From a virus (Duplodnaviria; Caudoviricetes), in the IMG/VR virus record IMGVR_UViG_3300030099_004644, positions 1 to 28,926 of that record: DNA of 28,926 nucleotides; one strand, written 5' to 3'. A program made the position numbers and the translations under genes. Shown one piece after another: positions 5,608 to 25,538 of the stretch. The notes under the pieces were generated by a model that had not been told where the DNA came from, did not search any database, and was given only the letters and a program-made list of their open reading frames with translations. Within the stretch, counting starts at the first letter, position 1; the number at the start of each line of letters is the position of its first letter.

Positions 5608-7098
5608 ATGATAATCAAAAAACTATTTGTTGAACGAATCGCTCCAGAAGAAGAGCCAGAAGACGCGCCTTTGATGGCTTCTTTTATTGCTTCCACTTCA
5701 GCCGAAGATCGTTATGGAGACGTCATAGCGCAATCATGGGATTTGACTAACTATCGAAAGAATCCAATTATATTATTTAATCATGACGCTAACCAACTAC
5801 CGATCGGAAAAGGCGATGTCGATGTAGTAGATGGAAACTTGATGATCGATATCACTTTTGATATGGACGATCCAAGAGCCGCCGAGATAGGCCGCAAAGT
5901 TAAAGCCGGTTTTCTGAATGCTGTGTCTGTTGGTTTTAATCCAATTGAGGCCGTCGAAAGATCAGAACTTCCAGATGGTCATTTTGCTAAAGGTGAGAAG
6001 GGGACATTCTTTAAGAGTGCCGAGCTTCTCGAAGTTTCAGTCGTGACGATTCCAGCAAATCAAGAAGCTGTATCATCCAAAGAATATCGAAACATTGAAA
6101 ACGTCGAGTCGATGACTTTATCGAAAGATCAGGCTATGGAGTTATACAAGTATATAGAACAACTTCGTGGAAGTGTTAAGGCACATGCGAGACAAGCCGA
6201 TTTCATCGAAAGCCTTTTTTCAATGGATGACAAATACTATGGTGATGATGAGGACTCGGAGTCAGAAGAAGACAAGCCAAAGACCAAAGATGTAAACTAT
6301 GGTCTAAAGTCAAACGCTAAAGAAGCGATGGAAGCACTCAAAGAGTCAACACAGAAAGCACTTATCAACAAAGCTGAACAGCACAATGAAGAATATGGAG
6401 ACAATCCAGAGAAGAAACTAACGAATAGAAATTATTTAGCTGTTTCCTATCATCGAGGTTTGGCCGCATTTTTTGGAAATCCTTCTTCCGTTCGTCCTTC
6501 TGTTTCAAGTGCTGATCAGTGGGCTATGGCCCGAGTCAATGGTTTACTCTTTGCGATGAGGACCGGAAAGTTCAAAAGCAAACCCTACGATGTTGATCTA
6601 TTACCGAAAGATCATCCACTATCGAACGCCGAAGAAGAGAAGCAAATCACGAAAGAGATATCTAACTTTCCGAAAGCCGGAGAAGATAAAAAGGTATCTT
6701 TGCGGAACTCACAATATCCGATCTTTCCTGTTGATTATGCCGAGAAGATAAAACTTGAATATCCGTCGATATGGAGCAAGGGGGGAAACATCTTAGGAAA
6801 TCAACAGTTTAGACTTTTGAAAAAGATACAGGAAAACAGCGGAGTACCGGAAACAGACAACCAAGAAGAAGCGATTCGACTTCGTGAAGCTTGGGCGGCT
6901 CGACATCTTCAAGATTTTCGAACAGCTGGAACAGTTGCACAAATGAAATGGCTTGTCATCGGTGAAAAAGGTCTTCAACATATGAAAGACACAATCAACG
7001 CCGAGATCGACAAACTTAAAAAGCTTGGCTCTTCGCCAAAAGATCAAGAAGCAAAATCTTTTGCTTTTTTGTACGATCTATTAAAACAAACAGACTAA
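5608..7098 (+). CDS. HK97-type prohead protease with a long C-terminal extension
   Basis: DRYGDVI, NPIILFNHD, AVSVGF and ELLEVSVVTIPAN motifs; start taken as ATG 5608, downstream of the promoter. Confidence 0.9.
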   Translation: MIIKKLFVERIAPEEEPEDAPLMASFIASTSAEDRYGDVIAQSWDLTNYRKNPIILFNHDANQLPIGKGDVDVVDGNLMIDITFDMDDPRAAEIGRKVKAGFLNAVSVGFNPIEAVERSELPDGHFAKGEKGTFFKSAELLEVSVVTIPANQEAVSSKEYRNIENVESMTLSKDQAMELYKYIEQLRGSVKAHARQADFIESLFSMDDKYYGDDEDSESEEDKPKTKDVNYGLKSNAKEAMEALKESTQKALINKAEQHNEEYGDNPEKKLTNRNYLAVSYHRGLAAFFGNPSSVRPSVSSADQWAMARVNGLLFAMRTGKFKSKPYDVDLLPKDHPLSNAEEEKQITKEISNFPKAGEDKKVSLRNSQYPIFPVDYAEKIKLEYPSIWSKGGNILGNQQFRLLKKIQENSGVPETDNQEEAIRLREAWAARHLQDFRTAGTVAQMKWLVIGEKGLQHMKDTINAEIDKLKKLGSSPKDQEAKSFAFLYDLLKQTD

Positions 7099-11821: not shown

Positions 11822-11860
11822 TTTCTTTTAATAAAATAAAATAAAAAAATTGGGCTGACA

Positions 11861-18818: not shown

Positions 18819-18871
18819 CAAAGATCCAAAAATTTTTTTTGGCCCGAGTCCAGAGTTTTCTCAAGAAAAAA

Positions 18872-18983
18872 ATTGGTTCAACCAATACGTAGACTTCAAA
18901 TCTCAGCCTTCTTTTTTTATCTTTCCGTATAAGGTTGCATGAAGATCGCTGAGATTCGAAGTTTAGAAATTGGTTCAACCATT
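18872..18983. repeat. Nested palindromic element A
   Basis: ATTGGTTCAACCAAT ... ACTTCAAATCTCAGC ... TATAAGGTTGCA ... GCTGAGATTCGAAGT ... ATTGGTTCAACCATT; an inverted homologue lies at 24139-24251. Confidence 0.85.
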
Positions 18984-19159
18984 GTATTTTATCCAGCTGG
19001 CTATGTTGGTTTAGTCCAAATTGCCGAACATTTCATTTTGATTTATTTTTTTTTGGGATCAAATAGCTATCATTTTGATGATTAAACGATCACTTTTCTA
19101 AGAAAACAAGCGTAAATTACTTAAAAAGTGCGAAAAATACCCTTATTTCACCTCAAAAG

Positions 19160-19199
19160 TAATATTTATGTTGATAAAATAATATTTATGGGCTATAAT
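19160..19199 (+). promoter_or_regulatory. Strong sigma70 early promoter with overlapping direct-repeat operator
   Basis: TTGATA (19171)-17 bp-TATAAT (19194); TAATATTTATG repeated at 19160 and 19180. Confidence 0.85.
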
Positions 19200-19273: not shown

Positions 19274-19582
19274 ATGAAAAATGTAGGATATGAAATCATT
19301 ATATGGAGCGGTGGCGACAACCACATTACAGGAGAGATTGCAACAGGCACTGTAGGTATTTTTGACCCAGATGAGCATAAATGGGCTTTAATGGACTATA
19401 TGCAAAAAATAGAAGAAGGATTCTTAGGCGCGTATTTAACCGTGAAGAAATACACGGGAGGCAATTGGGTTGAGTTTGGTCATAATATGGACGACTGTGA
19501 GCCGTTAAGCAATTTGCCCAAGTACTTACAGAAGAAACTGAGAAAGCTTATATCTTTTGATAGAGCCCGAAACAACTTGTAA
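19274..19582 (+). CDS. Hypothetical early protein (102 aa)
   Basis: ATG 19274 follows the shared leader AACACTCAAAGGAAAAATCAAA. Confidence 0.7.
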   Translation: MKNVGYEIIIWSGGDNHITGEIATGTVGIFDPDEHKWALMDYMQKIEEGFLGAYLTVKKYTGGNWVEFGHNMDDCEPLSNLPKYLQKKLRKLISFDRARNNL

Positions 19583-19645
19583 CCCTATAGCCTGAGTAAG
19601 CTTTTTAACTGCTCAACACTCAACACTCAAAGGAAAATCAAATGT
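19581..19645 (+). repeat. 65-bp structured leader repeat, copy 1
   Basis: 63/65 identical to 20392-20456; GAGTA/TGCTC pairing, CTCAACA heptads, AAGGA SD and ATG. Confidence 0.95.
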
Positions 19646-20064
19646 ACGAAATCAAATGTCTCGAATGTCATGAAACAAATACTTATAATCATCTTGAATG
19701 GTCGGCGGCTGTTTGCCAACATTGTAAACAGGAAACATATAATCCTCATTATAATCAGCCTTCTATTTATGCAGCTCTCGCCGGAATCGATCGGACTCGT
19801 CGAGATCATGGTAACAAAGGTTATCATACACCTTCGATCAGCCTTTCAACCGGCGAGAAGATCAGTCTCGCCGAATGGCGCGAGTCTCTTCTATTTATTC
19901 ATTCACTGATCCAGCGATACACAATCCACATGCAAAAGAATCAATATGATTATGCCGATCAGCTGGAAGAATATATCGCTGATCAATGCCTTCTCTATTT
20001 CGTTGATATTGATAAAAGTATACACGAGCACTATGAGATAACAGTCGAAGTGATGACAAGCTAA
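19642..20064 (+). CDS. Hypothetical protein with N-terminal Zn ribbon
   Basis: CLEC...CQHC; shared leader. Confidence 0.7.
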   Translation: MYEIKCLECHETNTYNHLEWSAAVCQHCKQETYNPHYNQPSIYAALAGIDRTRRDHGNKGYHTPSISLSTGEKISLAEWRESLLFIHSLIQRYTIHMQKNQYDYADQLEEYIADQCLLYFVDIDKSIHEHYEITVEVMTS

Positions 20065-20073
20065 TCGAAGCTT

Positions 20074-20125
20074 GTGTCTTCACCTGATATCGGTGAACTG
20101 ATGAGATCAAGATAGATCGAAACAC
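20074..20125 (+). ncRNA. Type III hammerhead ribozyme
   Basis: GUGU-C(cleavage after 20078); stem I UUCACC/GGUGAA; CUGAUGA; stem II GAUC/GAUC; GAAAC-AC. Loops UGAUAUC and AAGAUA are complementary (UAUC/GAUA). Intergenic. Confidence 0.88.
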
Positions 20126-20148
20126 TTAACACTTAAAGGATAATCAAA

Positions 20149-20361
20149 ATGAATGAAAAAGAATTCAAATCATGGGCTTTTGTCAAGCCTGAGACCCACA
20201 CTGAAAGTTATTGCACCTGTCCAGAATGCGGAGCTGGATTCTTTCTTTGGTTTGAAAACCATCATACAGATGATGAAGATTCAATTCAAAAAAACAGCCT
20301 TTGTACGCACTGCTTAGAAGAACTCGATGAAGAGTCAGAAGAAGAAGAGGAGTCATTTTAG
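20149..20361 (+). CDS. Small acidic Zn-finger protein
   Basis: CPEC...CTHC, poly-Glu tail; shared leader. Confidence 0.7.
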   Translation: MNEKEFKSWAFVKPETHTESYCTCPECGAGFFLWFENHHTDDEDSIQKNSLCTHCLEELDEESEEEEESF

Positions 20362-20391: not shown

Positions 20392-20456
20392 AACCCTATA
20401 GCCTGAGTAAGCTTTCCAACTGCTCAACACTCAACACTCAAAGGAAAATCAAATGT
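20392..20456 (+). repeat. 65-bp structured leader repeat, copy 2
   Basis: Matches 19581-19645 except TT versus CC in the linker. Confidence 0.95.
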
Positions 20457-20824
20457 CATATAAAAGTGGAAGCAAATGGATCGCAATAGAAAGAAGATGG
20501 CAAATATATTCGAGAGATAATCATGCGTGTATATATTGCGGATCTTCTGAAAATCTAACACTCGACCATGTCGATCCGACTCGCCGAAAAACTTGGCGCG
20601 GTCGAAACATAGAATGTCACGATGCTGATAACTTGGTCACATGTTGTCGAAGTTGCAACAGCAAAAAAAGAACAAAGAGCCTTGAGCAGTTCGCATCATC
20701 GGCGATTGTTGCAAAGGTTCGGCTGCAGCTGGCTCTTGATCTTCCAGATCATACAATCGCCATGAAACAAAAAACAGCCTATCAGACGATCGGCCAACTT
20801 CCCCTTTTTCAAAAGGTAGCATAA
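20453..20824 (+). CDS. HNH endonuclease
   Basis: RD...CIYCG...LTLDHVDP...NLVTCCRSCNSKK. Confidence 0.92.
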   Translation: MSYKSGSKWIAIERRWQIYSRDNHACIYCGSSENLTLDHVDPTRRKTWRGRNIECHDADNLVTCCRSCNSKKRTKSLEQFASSAIVAKVRLQLALDLPDHTIAMKQKTAYQTIGQLPLFQKVA

Positions 20825-21105
20825 TGAAGCATGGAAAACTATTTAAAACAGCCGCAATTATTATCGATGAATTCGATCTCATCGTTGAAGATGTCCGCAT
20901 GAGCGGATCGGTCCTCAATATCTATGTAACAAGATCAAGCTTTTATCAGGCTTGGACTGATATAAAACCAGTTTTCGAAACATCCACGATCAGGACAAAC
21001 TATCGCGGTGTAAAGATACAATCATTCACGCGAGACTATAAGAATGAACTATCAGCAAACATTTGTGTTTGGTGTACAACACTAACAGAGGAAAAAATCA
21101 AATGA
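20824..21105 (+). CDS. Hypothetical protein
   Basis: TAATG coupling with the HNH stop; AAGGT SD. Confidence 0.65.
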   Translation: MKHGKLFKTAAIIIDEFDLIVEDVRMSGSVLNIYVTRSSFYQAWTDIKPVFETSTIRTNYRGVKIQSFTRDYKNELSANICVWCTTLTEEKIK

Positions 21106-21356
21106 AATGTTCAAAATGTGGATATAAAAATAAGACTCTCAGAAAGTCTTTGACTTGTAAATATTGCGGAGCCGATTTGATACCGGCTGGTGATGACAAG
21201 AACTTTAAGACCTATTCGTTCAAAGATGACCCTGCCATCATGGCCGAGCTTGATCGTATAGGTTCAATTCTCAGCGAGTCACGAAAAGGAAAGGTGACAA
21301 GATCCAAATTGATTCGGTTAGCGGTTCGTCAGCTCTCCAAGGAGTTGCAACCATGA
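21102..21356 (+). CDS. Zn ribbon plus ribbon-helix-helix DNA-binding protein
   Basis: CSKC...CKYC followed by TYSFK...ELDRI...TRSKLIRLAV; ATG 21102 after a degenerate shared leader. Confidence 0.7.
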   Translation: MKCSKCGYKNKTLRKSLTCKYCGADLIPAGDDKNFKTYSFKDDPAIMAELDRIGSILSESRKGKVTRSKLIRLAVRQLSKELQP

Positions 21357-21424
21357 GCGACGAGAACTTTATTGATATTCTTGTGATGTCACTTGTGATC
21401 TTTGGTCTTGTATTTTTCATTTGA
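21353..21424 (+). CDS. 23-aa hydrophobic membrane peptide MSDENFIDILVMSLVIFGLVFFI
   Basis: AAGGAG SD at 21339 and ATGA coupling; a single TM helix. Confidence 0.65.
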   Translation: MSDENFIDILVMSLVIFGLVFFI

Positions 21425-21449
21425 CCATAGATCACGAAAAAGGTATAAC
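21421..21449 (+). promoter_or_regulatory. Sigma70 promoter of the small RNA
   Basis: TTGACC-17 bp-TATAAC. Confidence 0.75.
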
Positions 21450-21455
21450 TCTATA

Positions 21456-21518
21456 ACATGGATCTTGATTATCCTTGTTGAGTGTTTTAAGCGGTCCACG
21501 GTGGGCCGCTTTTTTTTT
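21456..21518 (+). ncRNA. Putative trans-acting antisense sRNA (~60 nt) complementary to the shared early-gene leader
   Basis: Own promoter and terminator; core TTGATTATCCTTGTTGAGTGTT is the reverse complement of AACACTCAACAAGGATAATCAA. Confidence 0.75.
21489..21518 (+). terminator. Intrinsic terminator
   Basis: AAGCGGTCCA-cgg-TGGGCCGCTT followed by a T run. Confidence 0.9.
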
Positions 21519-21538: not shown

Positions 21539-21937
21539 ATGAGAATATTATCAAAGACCATTCCAAGCTCGGTGACCGGTGTATCATCGACGATGGATGT
21601 CAACAAGAAGATCGACGTCGATCTTGACTTTAACTTCCGATCGGTGTTCAATGGAATACTTCGCGGACTTTGGATCAGGGTATCAAGTGCGGCCTCATCA
21701 CCGACCGCTATGACAATCCGACTCGCTGAAGATACAGCTGGAGACAAAATCATTATTCCAGATACTGATTCATCGATCGCGTTTGGTTTGACAACCACTT
21801 CGAGCGGTGCGGCTGTATATTCGATCGATATGCGATATGTATCAAGTGAAGCCGAGAAGCTTTATCTTTTTTTGAATACCGACACCGGAACGGTCAATAT
21901 CGATTCTGTTACTTTGACTTATGAGGTAGCATCATGA
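21539..21937 (+). CDS. Hypothetical beta-rich protein, probably virion-associated
   Basis: Ser/Thr-rich; first gene of the fibre operon; GGGCTGAC leader. Confidence 0.55.
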   Translation: MRILSKTIPSSVTGVSSTMDVNKKIDVDLDFNFRSVFNGILRGLWIRVSSAASSPTAMTIRLAEDTAGDKIIIPDTDSSIAFGLTTTSSGAAVYSIDMRYVSSEAEKLYLFLNTDTGTVNIDSVTLTYEVAS

Positions 21938-22191
21938 TATCGAATGTCTTTACAAGAAACGGCGGATCAAATGGTCGATCTTTTGATATGATAGATCTCA
22001 GCGATCAAATTGATAATTCTCGAAGGATTTTCACGCTTAAAGCATTTCGCCGTGGTAGTATACTTGTGTTCTTTAATGGACTCGCACAAAGAAATGGCGT
22101 CGAAATTACAGAACTATCTCGATCAACCTTTCAGACATCTTTCGTCCCTTCCACGGGATCGACTCTTCTTGTATTCTATCAACCTTTATAG
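21934..22191 (+). CDS. Small fibre-associated beta-domain protein
   Basis: DLSDQID...FTL...VFFNGLAQ...P..GS.L.V.Y pattern, similar to the C-terminus of the downstream fibre. Confidence 0.55.
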   Translation: MISNVFTRNGGSNGRSFDMIDLSDQIDNSRRIFTLKAFRRGSILVFFNGLAQRNGVEITELSRSTFQTSFVPSTGSTLLVFYQPL

Positions 22192-22202
22192 GAGTTCCAC
22201 AA

Positions 22203-24041
22203 ATGGCAATTCAAATCATAGCCGACCAGATTAAAAACGGTGAAGTCACAAACGACAAGCTCGCCGGATCTATCCAACCAGCAAAGCTCGATCTTTCTCA
22301 AGTTTTCGGTTTTACCGCAATACCTACAATCAACGCGACACCAACTGCAGCAAATCAAGTTGTTAGCAAATCATATGTCGATAACAAATTACAAGGTCTT
22401 TCTTGGCATGATAGTGTAAGAGTTCGATCTTCTTCTAACATAGACATTTCAGACGCGCCGGCGACCATCGACGGAATCAGTATGGCCGCGGACGATAGAG
22501 TTCTTTTGACTGCTCAAAGTACCGGATCCGAAAATGGTATCTATGTTTGGAGTTCAGCCGGTGGAGCCATGGCCCGAGCCGCGGATGCGGACACCTTCGC
22601 CGAGTTGCAATCAGCCGCGGTTTTCATCCGAGAAGGAACTTCAGCCGATAAAGGTTATCTACAGAGTGCCGAGCTTTCAAGTTTTGCTTCTCAAAACTGG
22701 ATCTTGTTTTCATCCACTAACGGCGGTCGTCAAGCAGGAACCGCTCTTGATCTTTCATCGAATACCCTATCAGTCAAGTTTGATAACTCCTCAATTGGTA
22801 CAAATGGATCTGGACAGCTTGAAATAAAAGCTGCAGGAATTCAAGACGCAATGGTTGCTTCTGGAACTTTAAGTAATTCACGGCTCGCAAATAGTAGTAT
22901 CACCGTGAACGCTGGATCAGGATTGTCCGGCGGTGGTGTAACTGCACTCGGAGCAAGTGTCACAGTCGCAGCCGCGGCCGCGGATTCTTCGATCGACGTT
23001 GGCGGTGGTGGAATTTCTGTGGCAAATGCAGGGGTCACCGCAGCAAAACTTGCTGGAAATTCTGTTCAGACTGGAAACATTGTCGATGCAAATGTTACCT
23101 TGGTAAAAGTTGAGAATGTTGCAGCTGGCAAAGTGATCATGGGAAATGCCTCAAACAGACCAACCGCGACCGCTATTTCTGGAGATATCGCGATTTCAAA
23201 CTCTGGAGCCGTAACGATTCAAGCCGGCGTCGTTGAGAACTCAATGTTAGCGGGATCTATCGAAAACGCAAAACTCCAGAATTCAGCCGTGACTCTTTCC
23301 GGCGGTGACGGTGTCTCGATTGCATCCGGCGCGATTTCTTTAGGCGGCTCAAAAACTGTTAACTTACAACTTGATGGTTCAAGTCTTAGCAAGTCCGGAT
23401 CAGGTTTGAAGATCGCTGACGCTGGAGTCGGATCGGCTCAACTACAAGACGACAGTTGCTCAACCGCAAAAATTCCAGACTCGGCCGTAACAAATGACAA
23501 GCTCGCTTCATCTTCTGTTTCAGTGGTGAGCGGTGATGGTCTTCAAGGTGGAGGATCTTTGAGTCTCGGCGGAACCTTAACACTTTCCATAGATCTCGAT
23601 GGCTCGTCTCTCGCACTTGATTCATCAAATGGTCTTTCAGTTGCGGCCGGCGGTATTCAAACCAGCATGTTAGCAGCCAACTGTGTAAACGCTGCAGCTA
23701 TCCAAAACAACGCGGTCGGAAGTTCGGAAATCGCCGACGATGCGGTCGGATCTACGGAGTTGGCAGCAAATGCAGTTTTGATCGAGAAGGTAGGCTTCCG
23801 AGCTTACACCGAATCGTTCAGTGGAACCACGAACACCAAATATGATCTTGGTCGTGCTGTTAATGCTAACTTCTTCGATCGAGTGCAAGTATTCCGAAAC
23901 GGTCTTCGTTGTAAGAAGGTTGCTTCACCTTCTGACAGTTCCGAATATAGTGTCGCAAATGATGGAACCTCTTCAGTGTGTGCTATCACTTTCGGAGCCG
24001 CTCCAAATGGTGATTCTATTATCGTTGATTATTTGACATAG
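22203..24041 (+). CDS. Tail fibre / virion fibre protein with internal repeats
   Basis: SKSYVD..GL.W.DSVRV, IDG..DRVLL..Q..ENGIYV; repeated VT..KLA..SV and G.GL.GGG...LG units; AGGAG SD. Confidence 0.8.
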   Translation: MAIQIIADQIKNGEVTNDKLAGSIQPAKLDLSQVFGFTAIPTINATPTAANQVVSKSYVDNKLQGLSWHDSVRVRSSSNIDISDAPATIDGISMAADDRVLLTAQSTGSENGIYVWSSAGGAMARAADADTFAELQSAAVFIREGTSADKGYLQSAELSSFASQNWILFSSTNGGRQAGTALDLSSNTLSVKFDNSSIGTNGSGQLEIKAAGIQDAMVASGTLSNSRLANSSITVNAGSGLSGGGVTALGASVTVAAAAADSSIDVGGGGISVANAGVTAAKLAGNSVQTGNIVDANVTLVKVENVAAGKVIMGNASNRPTATAISGDIAISNSGAVTIQAGVVENSMLAGSIENAKLQNSAVTLSGGDGVSIASGAISLGGSKTVNLQLDGSSLSKSGSGLKIADAGVGSAQLQDDSCSTAKIPDSAVTNDKLASSSVSVVSGDGLQGGGSLSLGGTLTLSIDLDGSSLALDSSNGLSVAAGGIQTSMLAANCVNAAAIQNNAVGSSEIADDAVGSTELAANAVLIEKVGFRAYTESFSGTTNTKYDLGRAVNANFFDRVQVFRNGLRCKKVASPSDSSEYSVANDGTSSVCAITFGAAPNGDSIIVDYLT

Positions 24042-24124: not shown

Positions 24125-24138
24125 CTTTCCTCCTTCTA

Positions 24139-24251
24139 AGTGGTTGAACCAATTATCCAACCTTGCAATCTCAGCCGTTTTCTTTGGTTTACCTGTAACC
24201 TTATAGGGATAGATTGCTGAGGTTTCGATCTTACATATTGGTTGAACCAAT
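24139..24251. repeat. Nested palindromic element B (inverted relative to A)
   Basis: TGGTTGAACCAAT ... AATCTCAGC ... TGTAACCTTATA ... GCTGAGGTT ... ATTGGTTGAACCAAT. Confidence 0.85.
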
Positions 24252-24534
24252 AAAACCGATCCAAAAATCGATTCTAAGATCAGCCGGATATATTGACATA
24301 TCTATCGAATAAAGATCCAAGATTTGACAATAAACATTTGATTTTTGACCGCAAAACGTGTTACATAACAACGTAGTGTTAGTAATTGTTCCAATGTCTG
24401 GATTATTTTAATTTTATTCATAGAAATATATAAATAGTAAATTTTTATTAAAAAAAATAAAACTGAAAACAAAAAAAAACTACTAACCTCCGCCGAAAGG
24501 CAAACACTCAACACTCAAAAAAAGGATAATCAAT

Positions 24535-25251
24535 ATGAGTTTGATTCTTACTCTTGAAGAGGAGTACAACATGTCTCCTCTTGAATCTCGGTTCGTCGAG
24601 CTTTATAACTCGCACGGATGGCAAACCAGCCAAGATAGAAAGCCGCTCGCGGTTTTCGCCAACATCCCGAACCCTTCAAAGGTTGACATATACTTCGAGC
24701 TTGACAAGATCGACGAATGGTTAAGGTCGAAGCAATCTTCCAAACGCTGGAAGGTGAACGAGTGGATCGACTTCTTGACCAGCTGGCTTGGTCGAGTAAA
24801 GCGGCCGAAGCTACAAACCAAGGATCGAGACATAAAGAATATGCCGTACTATATGGTAATATATGATCGAATCATAGAAAGATCAGCAAACCGAATGGAC
24901 TTCCCCGAAGAGGTCCGCGAGAAGTATTGGAGAATGTGGTCGTGGTTGACAGAAGGTATTGATCCAACAAGAAAAGATCGATCGCGCGCCGGTAAGGCGA
25001 TGAAGGAATGGATCGAGAAGATCGCGCTCAACTATAACAAAGAACAAAAGAACCTATACTATAAGAAGCTGAACAAGCTTGTCGAAAGAGGTGATTTTGA
25101 CAATAACGACATGTTGGACTTTCTTGGCTGTCATTCGGCAGGTGTACTCAATGAAGTTCTTGATCTGCTATATGGTCCAGAACTTGACCGGCCCGATCTG
25201 GACAAAATGCGTTGTGATGTTACTTTGAGAATTGATAGGAGTATTTTATGA
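24535..25251 (+). CDS. Putative replication-associated protein
   Basis: ELDKIDEWL...K...WIDFLTSWLGR resembles C-terminal domains of phage replication initiators; shared leader; second possible start at 24571 (GAGGAG). Confidence 0.4.
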   Translation: MSLILTLEEEYNMSPLESRFVELYNSHGWQTSQDRKPLAVFANIPNPSKVDIYFELDKIDEWLRSKQSSKRWKVNEWIDFLTSWLGRVKRPKLQTKDRDIKNMPYYMVIYDRIIERSANRMDFPEEVREKYWRMWSWLTEGIDPTRKDRSRAGKAMKEWIEKIALNYNKEQKNLYYKKLNKLVERGDFDNNDMLDFLGCHSAGVLNEVLDLLYGPELDRPDLDKMRCDVTLRIDRSIL

Positions 25252-25469
25252 TTATACGAATATCAAAAGACAAATGGATAAACTTAAAAAATGTCGAGAT
25301 GATCACTCTTACAAAGAAGATAGTCGATATCAATGTTTTTGATTATCCTCCTGAGCGTAATGATATTATGACCTTAAATTTTCATTGTACTTCTGGTACA
25401 GTTTATAAGTATCATGACACTTTATTAAATATAAAGATATTACTGAAAAAATACAAATTGGATTTATAA
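25248..25469 (+). CDS. Hypothetical protein (AT-rich)
   Basis: AGGAG SD and ATGA coupling. Confidence 0.65.
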   Translation: MIIRISKDKWINLKNVEMITLTKKIVDINVFDYPPERNDIMTLNFHCTSGTVYKYHDTLLNIKILLKKYKLDL

Positions 25470-25538
25470 TGTTGTACATGATCGAAGACCTCCAAAATAA
25501 TACAAAGAAGATAGTCGATATCAATGTTTACGATTATC
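25310..25538 (+). repeat. 38-bp direct repeat (25310-25347 and 25501-25538)
   Basis: TACAAAGAAGATAGTCGATATCAATGTTT(TT/AC)GATTATC, 36/38 identical. Confidence 0.9.

Follow-up and report, generated by a model that had tools for sequence, protein, structure and literature searches.

The window analysed here, which is the whole record of an uncultured phage (28,926 nt), carries a short transcription unit directly ahead of a block of structural genes. This unit is a real, conserved and co-evolving element and, judging from sequence, it probably makes a small RNA that represses in trans the translation of the leader-bearing early genes of the phage, together with that of a replication-related gene. 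The features involved are as follows, in window coordinates, with target ranks taken among 36 gene starts.

19171..19199, + strand: early accessory array promoter, sigma70-type, 11/12 consensus, with counterparts in L003 and L004
19252..19273, + strand: shared leader of ORF 19274-19582 (102 aa, no family), target rank 5 of 36
19581..19645, + strand: 65-nt repeat copy 1, containing the leader of ORF 19642-20064 (140 aa), target rank 3
20121..20148, + strand: shared leader of ORF 20149-20361 (70 aa, weak zinc ribbon), target rank 1
20392..20456, + strand: 65-nt repeat copy 2, containing the leader of the HNH endonuclease ORF 20453-20824, target rank 4
21080..21101, + strand: degenerate leader of ORF 21102-21356, weak target, rank 12
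21421..21449, + strand: predicted small RNA promoter, -35 at 21421, -10 at 21444
21455..21479, + strand: 5′ hairpin from the predicted +1 (predicted fold)
21465..21486, + strand: anti-leader core, invariant in 7/7 close contigs
21489..21518, + strand: intrinsic terminator, hairpin 21489-21511 followed by a U run
21539..24041, + strand: structural block of three genes (132 aa, 85 aa, 612 aa), beginning ~20 nt after the U run
24502..24534, + strand: shared leader of gene 24535, target rank 2
24535..25251, + strand: gene 24535, 238-aa all-helical protein, N-terminal domain distantly related to O-like initiators

The predicted RNA unit, the leaders and the gene setting

The last 111 nt of the window repeat the first 111 with 6 mismatches. 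The + strand gene set includes terminase, portal, protease, capsid, tail tube, tape measure, amidase and methylase; the best match of the terminase among isolated phages stays below 28% identity, and a host search by scans of species genomes gave no relative. No integrase, CI, antirepressor or antiterminator family was found among 35 proteins searched with Pfam and 16 searched with PHROGs, many ORFs being without a family. The accessory array is located between the lysis genes and the three-gene structural block, behind the near-consensus promoter at 19171. A ~120-bp element flanks the array and the structural block as an inverted duplicate (18866-18989 and 24134-24251), each copy with two near-palindromic 12-mers 97-98 bp apart (18873 and 18970; 24140 and 24238), and the left copy in L004 looks like the right one reverse-complemented; the element is a candidate origin, set of initiator sites or pair of inversion ends.

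The promoter of the unit consists of TTGACC at 21421, a 17-nt spacer and TATAAC at 21444-21449. Its -35 overlaps the stop codon of a 23-codon ORF (21353-21424), both hexamers are invariant in 7/7 close contigs, and it is missing from the promoter-scan list because its -10 ends in C. The predicted RNA spans about 21455-21518 (~62 nt), and its whole fold beats 200 of 200 shuffles (z -3.6). An earlier note on this DNA had described this promoter, about 30 nt of non-stem sequence, a terminator, and a core at 21465-21486 that is the reverse complement of a leader consensus. The promoter, the terminator (21489-21511 plus the T run) and the core are all present as it had claimed; the body is not stem-free, since the first 25 nt form a weak hairpin (-5.4 kcal/mol) with an exposed 7-nt loop. 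This loop (21464-21470) is antisense to the spacer from the Shine-Dalgarno sequence (SD) to the AUG, the 3′ strand of the stem is anti-SD, and 21480-21488, single-stranded in the predicted fold, is antisense to a CA-rich box further upstream in the leaders. A reverse gene behind the motif is ruled out, in agreement with the same note, as the frame on the minus strand has only 2 codons. Another hairpin (21393-21437, -18.2 kcal/mol) overlaps the -35 of the RNA and the end of the 23-codon ORF, which is hydrophobic; two of its stem bases are changed in close relatives, and it may mark a place where the early transcript is processed.

The five longest + strand matches to the complement of the core all fall within gene leaders (12 nt at 24522, 24502 and 20136; 11 nt at 20426 and 19615), which confirms the lengths claimed earlier for the leaders of 20149 and 24535 (12 nt) and of 19642, 20453 and 24535 (11 nt). 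The leader of 19274 has a 9-nt match and that of 21102 is degenerate. Exact sites of at least 11 nt number five, against a shuffle mean of 0.5, and 9 of 5000 shuffles reach five. When the full RNA was cofolded with 36 gene starts, two of which were 3 nt off, ranks 1 to 5 went, in order, to 20149, 24535, 19642, 20453 and 19274, and all six proposed targets taken together stood apart from the other starts (Mann-Whitney p 1.5e-5). The proposal of one RNA directed against six leaders therefore stands for five of them; 21102, the product of which has a zinc ribbon and a CopG-like repressor match (E 4e-5), ranks 12th of 36 and is a weak target. The duplexes predicted with the five leaders consist of two helices, one at the ribosome-binding site (RBS) and one upstream, and the target SD regions lie 0.4-3 kb from the unit, a separate operon included. 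An unfiltered duplex scan of the whole genome on both strands gave sites in these leaders as 4 of its top 10 trans sites and sites elsewhere as the other 6, so that pairing energy alone is insufficient to pick out the leaders.

Two further kinds of site were considered and rejected: a second 11-nt copy of the seed (25339-25349) is a chance occurrence, inside a coding frame and not kept in L111, and the anti-leader stretches at ~19010-19065 and 24310-24370 lie upstream of predicted transcription starts and are without a terminator. As to other repeats, the 65-nt repeat reaches well upstream of its antisense-matched part, can form a weak hairpin and has further copies in L004. An identical 8-mer (at 11852, 21529 and 26254) stands 1-2 nt before the ATG of three non-array genes, possibly as a second class of leader, and a 38-nt repeat (25310-25347 and 25501-25538) is common to two adjacent small ORFs, the first of which is absent from L003.

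Gene 24535, which the earlier note called a putative replication gene, has no direct family match in Pfam or PHROGs. A profile search nevertheless relates it, distantly, to the domain that follows the helix-turn-helix (HTH) in O-like replication initiators. This search returned 48 proteins: an N-terminal HTH was found in 6 of the 21 scanned with Pfam, and 4 of the 19 scanned with PHROGs match replication-initiator or DnaD-like families. A fold search with the model of the protein gave nothing clear (best Z 4.5), the Atlas leads all being below 0.9. From its sequence relationships, a replication role is likely.

Downstream, the 612-aa product of the structural block is decoration- or tail-fibre-like, and gene 22203 has its matches among decoration and tail-fibre PHROGs. 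In 8/8 units printed, 10-25 nt separate the end of the U run from the orthologue of gene 21539, which leaves little room for another promoter. By analogy with lambda 6S RNA, we infer that the structural block would be reached by read-through of the terminator, the unit being most likely also the terminated leader of the structural operon. In the window, the early transcript would stop at this same terminator and so contain the seed at its 3′ end. The unit of L087, L115 and L106 is insulated by a further terminator immediately upstream and for this reason needs its own promoter there.

Distribution and covariation among relatives

In six further close contigs (L003, L004 and L109-L112) the hexamers and the core are unchanged; the upstream ORF and the terminator loop vary, the terminator stem being kept. 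Other accessory genes stand behind the same leader in L003, L004 and L111; new genes, which the earlier note had considered as possible additions to its regulon, do turn up there. Since different genes follow it, and since the breaks in similarity among close relatives coincide with its repeats, the leader is also a gene-swapping junction.

Neighbour-gene searches yielded 40 contigs with a homologue of gene 21539, 3 of them with too little upstream DNA, so that 37 were testable. By a rule that asks for a hairpin of -12 kcal/mol or better plus a T tail within 90 nt, a unit was found in 18 of the 37, one (L123) being borderline; the rule misses L119/L107, with a tail poor in T. The unit precedes the 21539 orthologue in 12 of the 13 contigs carrying a 24535 homologue, and the 18 testable contigs without a unit at that position are all without a detected 24535 homologue. 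The unit-bearing contigs form, in the analyst's own grouping, seven lineages, and their protein 21539 is 33-47% identical to that of the window. Between six of these lineages the RNA bodies are 41-67% alike and do not align. The array of L087 and L115 lies on the opposite strand, yet their unit stays in place and is still antisense to the leaders. The array has moved or been inverted between lineages (L087 5300-9700, L105 11700-13660, L107 4200-7250), the unit staying with gene 21539.

L008 also carries a unit, whose body has a 13-nt exact match to the leader of the small terminase and one of 9 nt to the leader of the 24535 homologue. Among more distant phages with repeated SD leaders, candidate units occur elsewhere (before the terminase in L091; also in L097). 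L122/G001, a 99%-complete relative that was read in three pieces, contains ten SD leaders of the repeated kind, and no anti-leader unit by the filter used; its leader also stands before a structural gene. Repeated leaders can thus exist without the RNA. Relatives that keep the leaders and lack the RNA, which the earlier note had named as evidence against its reading, were thus found in part, in the distant L122. Two observations concern L106: the leaders of its methylase genes (12953 and 13618) have a 10-nt exact match to its RNA, so that targets may exceed the array, and at 6910-6988 the RNA body contains an ATG whose frame runs on through the terminator into the downstream structural gene, which was not seen in the other lineages.

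Folding of 14 units gave the same succession in all of them: a 5′ hairpin with a usually seed-bearing loop, a U-rich stretch and the terminator. The window, L087, L115, L104 and L106 have a loop that is antisense to the SD-to-AUG region. Six lineages have rule-defined 5′ ends; all six (6/6) begin their hairpin at nt 1-2 (shuffle frequencies 0.13-0.44), and the hairpin energy gives a combined p of 0.003, each lineage alone being weak (individual p 0.01-0.17); the 5′ ends of L008, L091 and L097, chosen by eye, are outside this combined value.

For covariation, the RNA body was taken from 6 nt after the -10 up to the terminator stem, the -10 of L104 being set by eye. A first test was run on the leader that precedes the 24535 orthologue, a gene identified by protein homology, with z computed against 282 background starts. 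The cognate z values were -3.7 for the window, -3.8 for L087, -4.8 for L104, -0.3 for L105, -3.5 for L106 and -3.9 for L108, and the cognate diagonal was the best of 720 permutations of these six lineages, which exclude L107 (kin of L108) and L115 (kin of L087); L008 is in neither covariation matrix. L107 scores -1.9 with its own RNA and its leader gives z -3.1 with that of the window; in L105 the 24535 leader is unmatched, 102 of 282 background windows pairing as well. A second test took the array leaders, called automatically by position (4, 7, 3, 4, 4 and 7 genes), with region limits set by the analyst, some starts miscalled and L120 standing in for the L108 lineage. The cognate means were -4.1, -2.3, -2.4, -1.3, -2.7 and -2.1 in the six lineages, the non-cognate means were all -0.85 or weaker, and the cognate pairing was again the best of 720; L105 matches its own array leaders modestly (-1.25). 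The covariation of RNA and leaders, put forward in the earlier note as a check, thus holds in two target sets, with L105 weak. The seeds are constant within a lineage and divergent between lineages. G-U wobble counts were 39 vs 21 (p 0.014) and unique changes 25 vs 16 (p 0.11), in a test contaminated by chance alignments and confounded by the need for G in the SD.

Proposed mechanism and alternative readings

We propose that host RNA polymerase would fire the unit promoter and stop at the terminator. Pairing would be nucleated by the hairpin loop of the resulting RNA, at the A-rich stretch that separates SD from AUG; the stem would then open, its 3′ strand covering the SD, and the U-rich tail would pair with the CA-rich box upstream of the SD. 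Ribosome loading on the leaders would be blocked and, as the stable RNA builds up, early proteins would be limited to a pulse. The same promoter would serve the downstream structural genes through read-through, which would make the RNA a terminated late-operon leader reused as an off-switch for early genes, and any gene that recombination places behind the leader would come under the same control. The idea in the earlier note that the RNA might stand in for a CI repressor would be a possibility at most, and a CopG-like repressor candidate is present at 21102.

The RNA might also pair with the leaders and have as its main job superinfection exclusion, nuclease-coupled decay, or the protection or storage of early mRNAs, instead of a timing of the phage's own translation, which we consider unlikely, if the least so of the alternatives. 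Immunity groups set by the seed would agree with seeds that are invariant within lineages and divergent between them, and a 4-nt change in C4 is described as restricting cross-reaction in P1 and P7 (PMC5320573); moreover, the sign of the effect cannot be given by sequence alone. Nevertheless, with no integrase or CI found by Pfam and PHROGs, a lysogen in which immunity could act would be hypothetical, and the pairing covers the SD. Pairing of bacterial sRNAs over the SD usually blocks initiation.

It is improbable that the motif acts as DNA, with a phage protein such as the CopG-like product of 21102 binding the leaders and the copy at 21465 serving as an operator. This copy does stand just downstream of the structural-operon promoter, a common operator position, and adjoins the candidate repressor gene; a changing binding protein would also make all its sites change together. 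However, in every lineage the promoter-to-terminator strand carries the copy in antisense form, regardless of how the array is oriented, and the hairpin is kept through complete sequence turnover. Ribbon-helix-helix operators, moreover, tend to be symmetric, but this motif has no symmetry and keeps to the SD spacing. The units that differ from the leaders at SD guanines carry U (L087, L104, L106 and L097), which is no more than suggestive.

Slightly less probable still is that the unit is only an attenuated late leader, similar to lambda 6S RNA, and that its match to the leaders is a functionless by-product of recombination or gene conversion among repeats. The short distance from U run to structural gene (10-25 nt in 8/8 units printed), the leaders being recombination junctions, and the occurrence of repeated leaders without the RNA in L122 all agree with it. 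Yet an inverted bipartite match re-tuned in several lineages, with differing linkers and wobble pairs, would be hard to maintain without selection, and the core stays unchanged beside an upstream ORF and a terminator loop that differ between relatives. Finally, a leaderless 7-codon leader peptide (ATG at 21458) is very improbable: its frame does exist in sequence invariant among close relatives, but L087, L115, L104, L108 and L008 are without a start codon at the equivalent place, and the complementarity would be left unexplained.

Comparison with known systems

A small RNA repressing the leaders in trans would share with the trans-encoded base-pairing sRNAs a promoter and an intrinsic terminator of its own, as well as imperfect pairing to several distant mRNAs. 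Rfam gave no relevant match in the window (E up to 1) and none at gathering score in 7 related loci, and the C4 covariance model gave no match in the window (E up to 1) or in the same 7 loci. The element is most probably an anti-leader RNA acting in trans, and would be a variant of phage antisense control, distinct from C4 and from the Rfam families. Of the antisense RNAs known from phages, most act on a single gene or operon, C4 controlling an antirepressor operon. Here, a swappable array and a replication-related gene share an address that is apparently read by one RNA, address and reader co-evolving; if this is true, phage accessory genes would have a regulon that needs no protein and into which new genes can be plugged. 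Furthermore, the six natural RNA-leader pairs are a largely orthogonal set, perhaps useful for synthetic multi-gene repression. With most subscription papers outside its coverage, the literature search found no paper on a phage RNA directed against a shared multi-gene leader; a review table of 38 uncharacterised phage sRNAs and the catalogue PMC10690425 may bear on novelty.

C4 of P1/P7 is a short phage RNA that pairs through two regions, the first over the RBS and the second further upstream, and small sequence changes set its specificity; it contains three stem-loops and is released from a precursor by RNase P (PMC5320573). The bipartite pairing of the window RNA parallels the a′/b′ loops of C4 (immI). 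Unlike C4, with its stem-loops P1-P3, the units have one 5′ hairpin plus a terminator (14/14), and the window RNA is a predicted primary transcript with dispersed targets that carry a repeated leader. The CI RNA of P4 is a processed antisense RNA that limits expression of replication genes via repeated complementary sites, with premature termination at the flanking seqA and seqC of its own transcript (PMC4825925). Antisense to repeated sites and a replication-related target are common to both; in the present case, unlike P4, the sites are ribosome-binding regions up to 3 kb off, in separate operons, and in L087 on the other strand.

Lambda 6S RNA is described as a short RNA, about 194 nt long and Q-dependent, ended by a terminator that is read through for the structural genes; it is Hfq-bound, with one early-operon target and a role given as undetermined, and no shared-leader match is reported for it (bioRxiv 10.1101/2024.10.31.621285). 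The resemblance lies in a promoter and terminator directly ahead of structural genes (8/8 units printed), whereas the window unit is ~62 nt long and matches a shared leader, no antiterminator having been found by Pfam or PHROGs. In turn, the PeSL cassettes of T4-like phages are promoter-terminator repeats where accessory genes swap (PMC2839356). The leaders are likewise repeated regulatory elements at which accessory genes are swapped, but the window repeat is a translation leader with an antisense partner.

The start-associated sequence (SAS) of Cluster K mycobacteriophages offers a further parallel. It is described as an over-conserved SD-containing repeat before non-structural genes, with one inverted copy away from a gene start in K1 phages and the choice between an RNA and a protein partner left open (Pope et al., 2011, PMC3203893); SAS also occurs in Cluster EF Microbacterium phages, its role being still called unclear in 2020 (PMC7302621). 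Both systems have an over-conserved SD repeat at non-structural genes plus one inverted copy; they differ in the motif (the 13-bp Cluster K consensus is not met here) and in the host group. We found the inverted SAS in the loop of a long intergenic hairpin in 3/3 K1 mycobacteriophages checked (Adephagia, CrimD and Anaya; L128 28683, L131 1536, L132 1571). No bounding promoter or U-run terminator was seen at this K1 copy, and no inverted SAS within 2 mismatches in the right arms of TM4 and Pixie. It is conceivable, if rather doubtful, that many phages combine a standard early leader with one master anti-leader RNA, made as the terminated 5′ end of a late operon, the late promoter silencing all leader genes, seed and leader diverging together into lock-and-key groups, and the SAS of actinobacteriophages being the targets of such RNAs. 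The comparison offers a concrete and cheap test of SAS function, which papers of 2011 and 2020 both left open.
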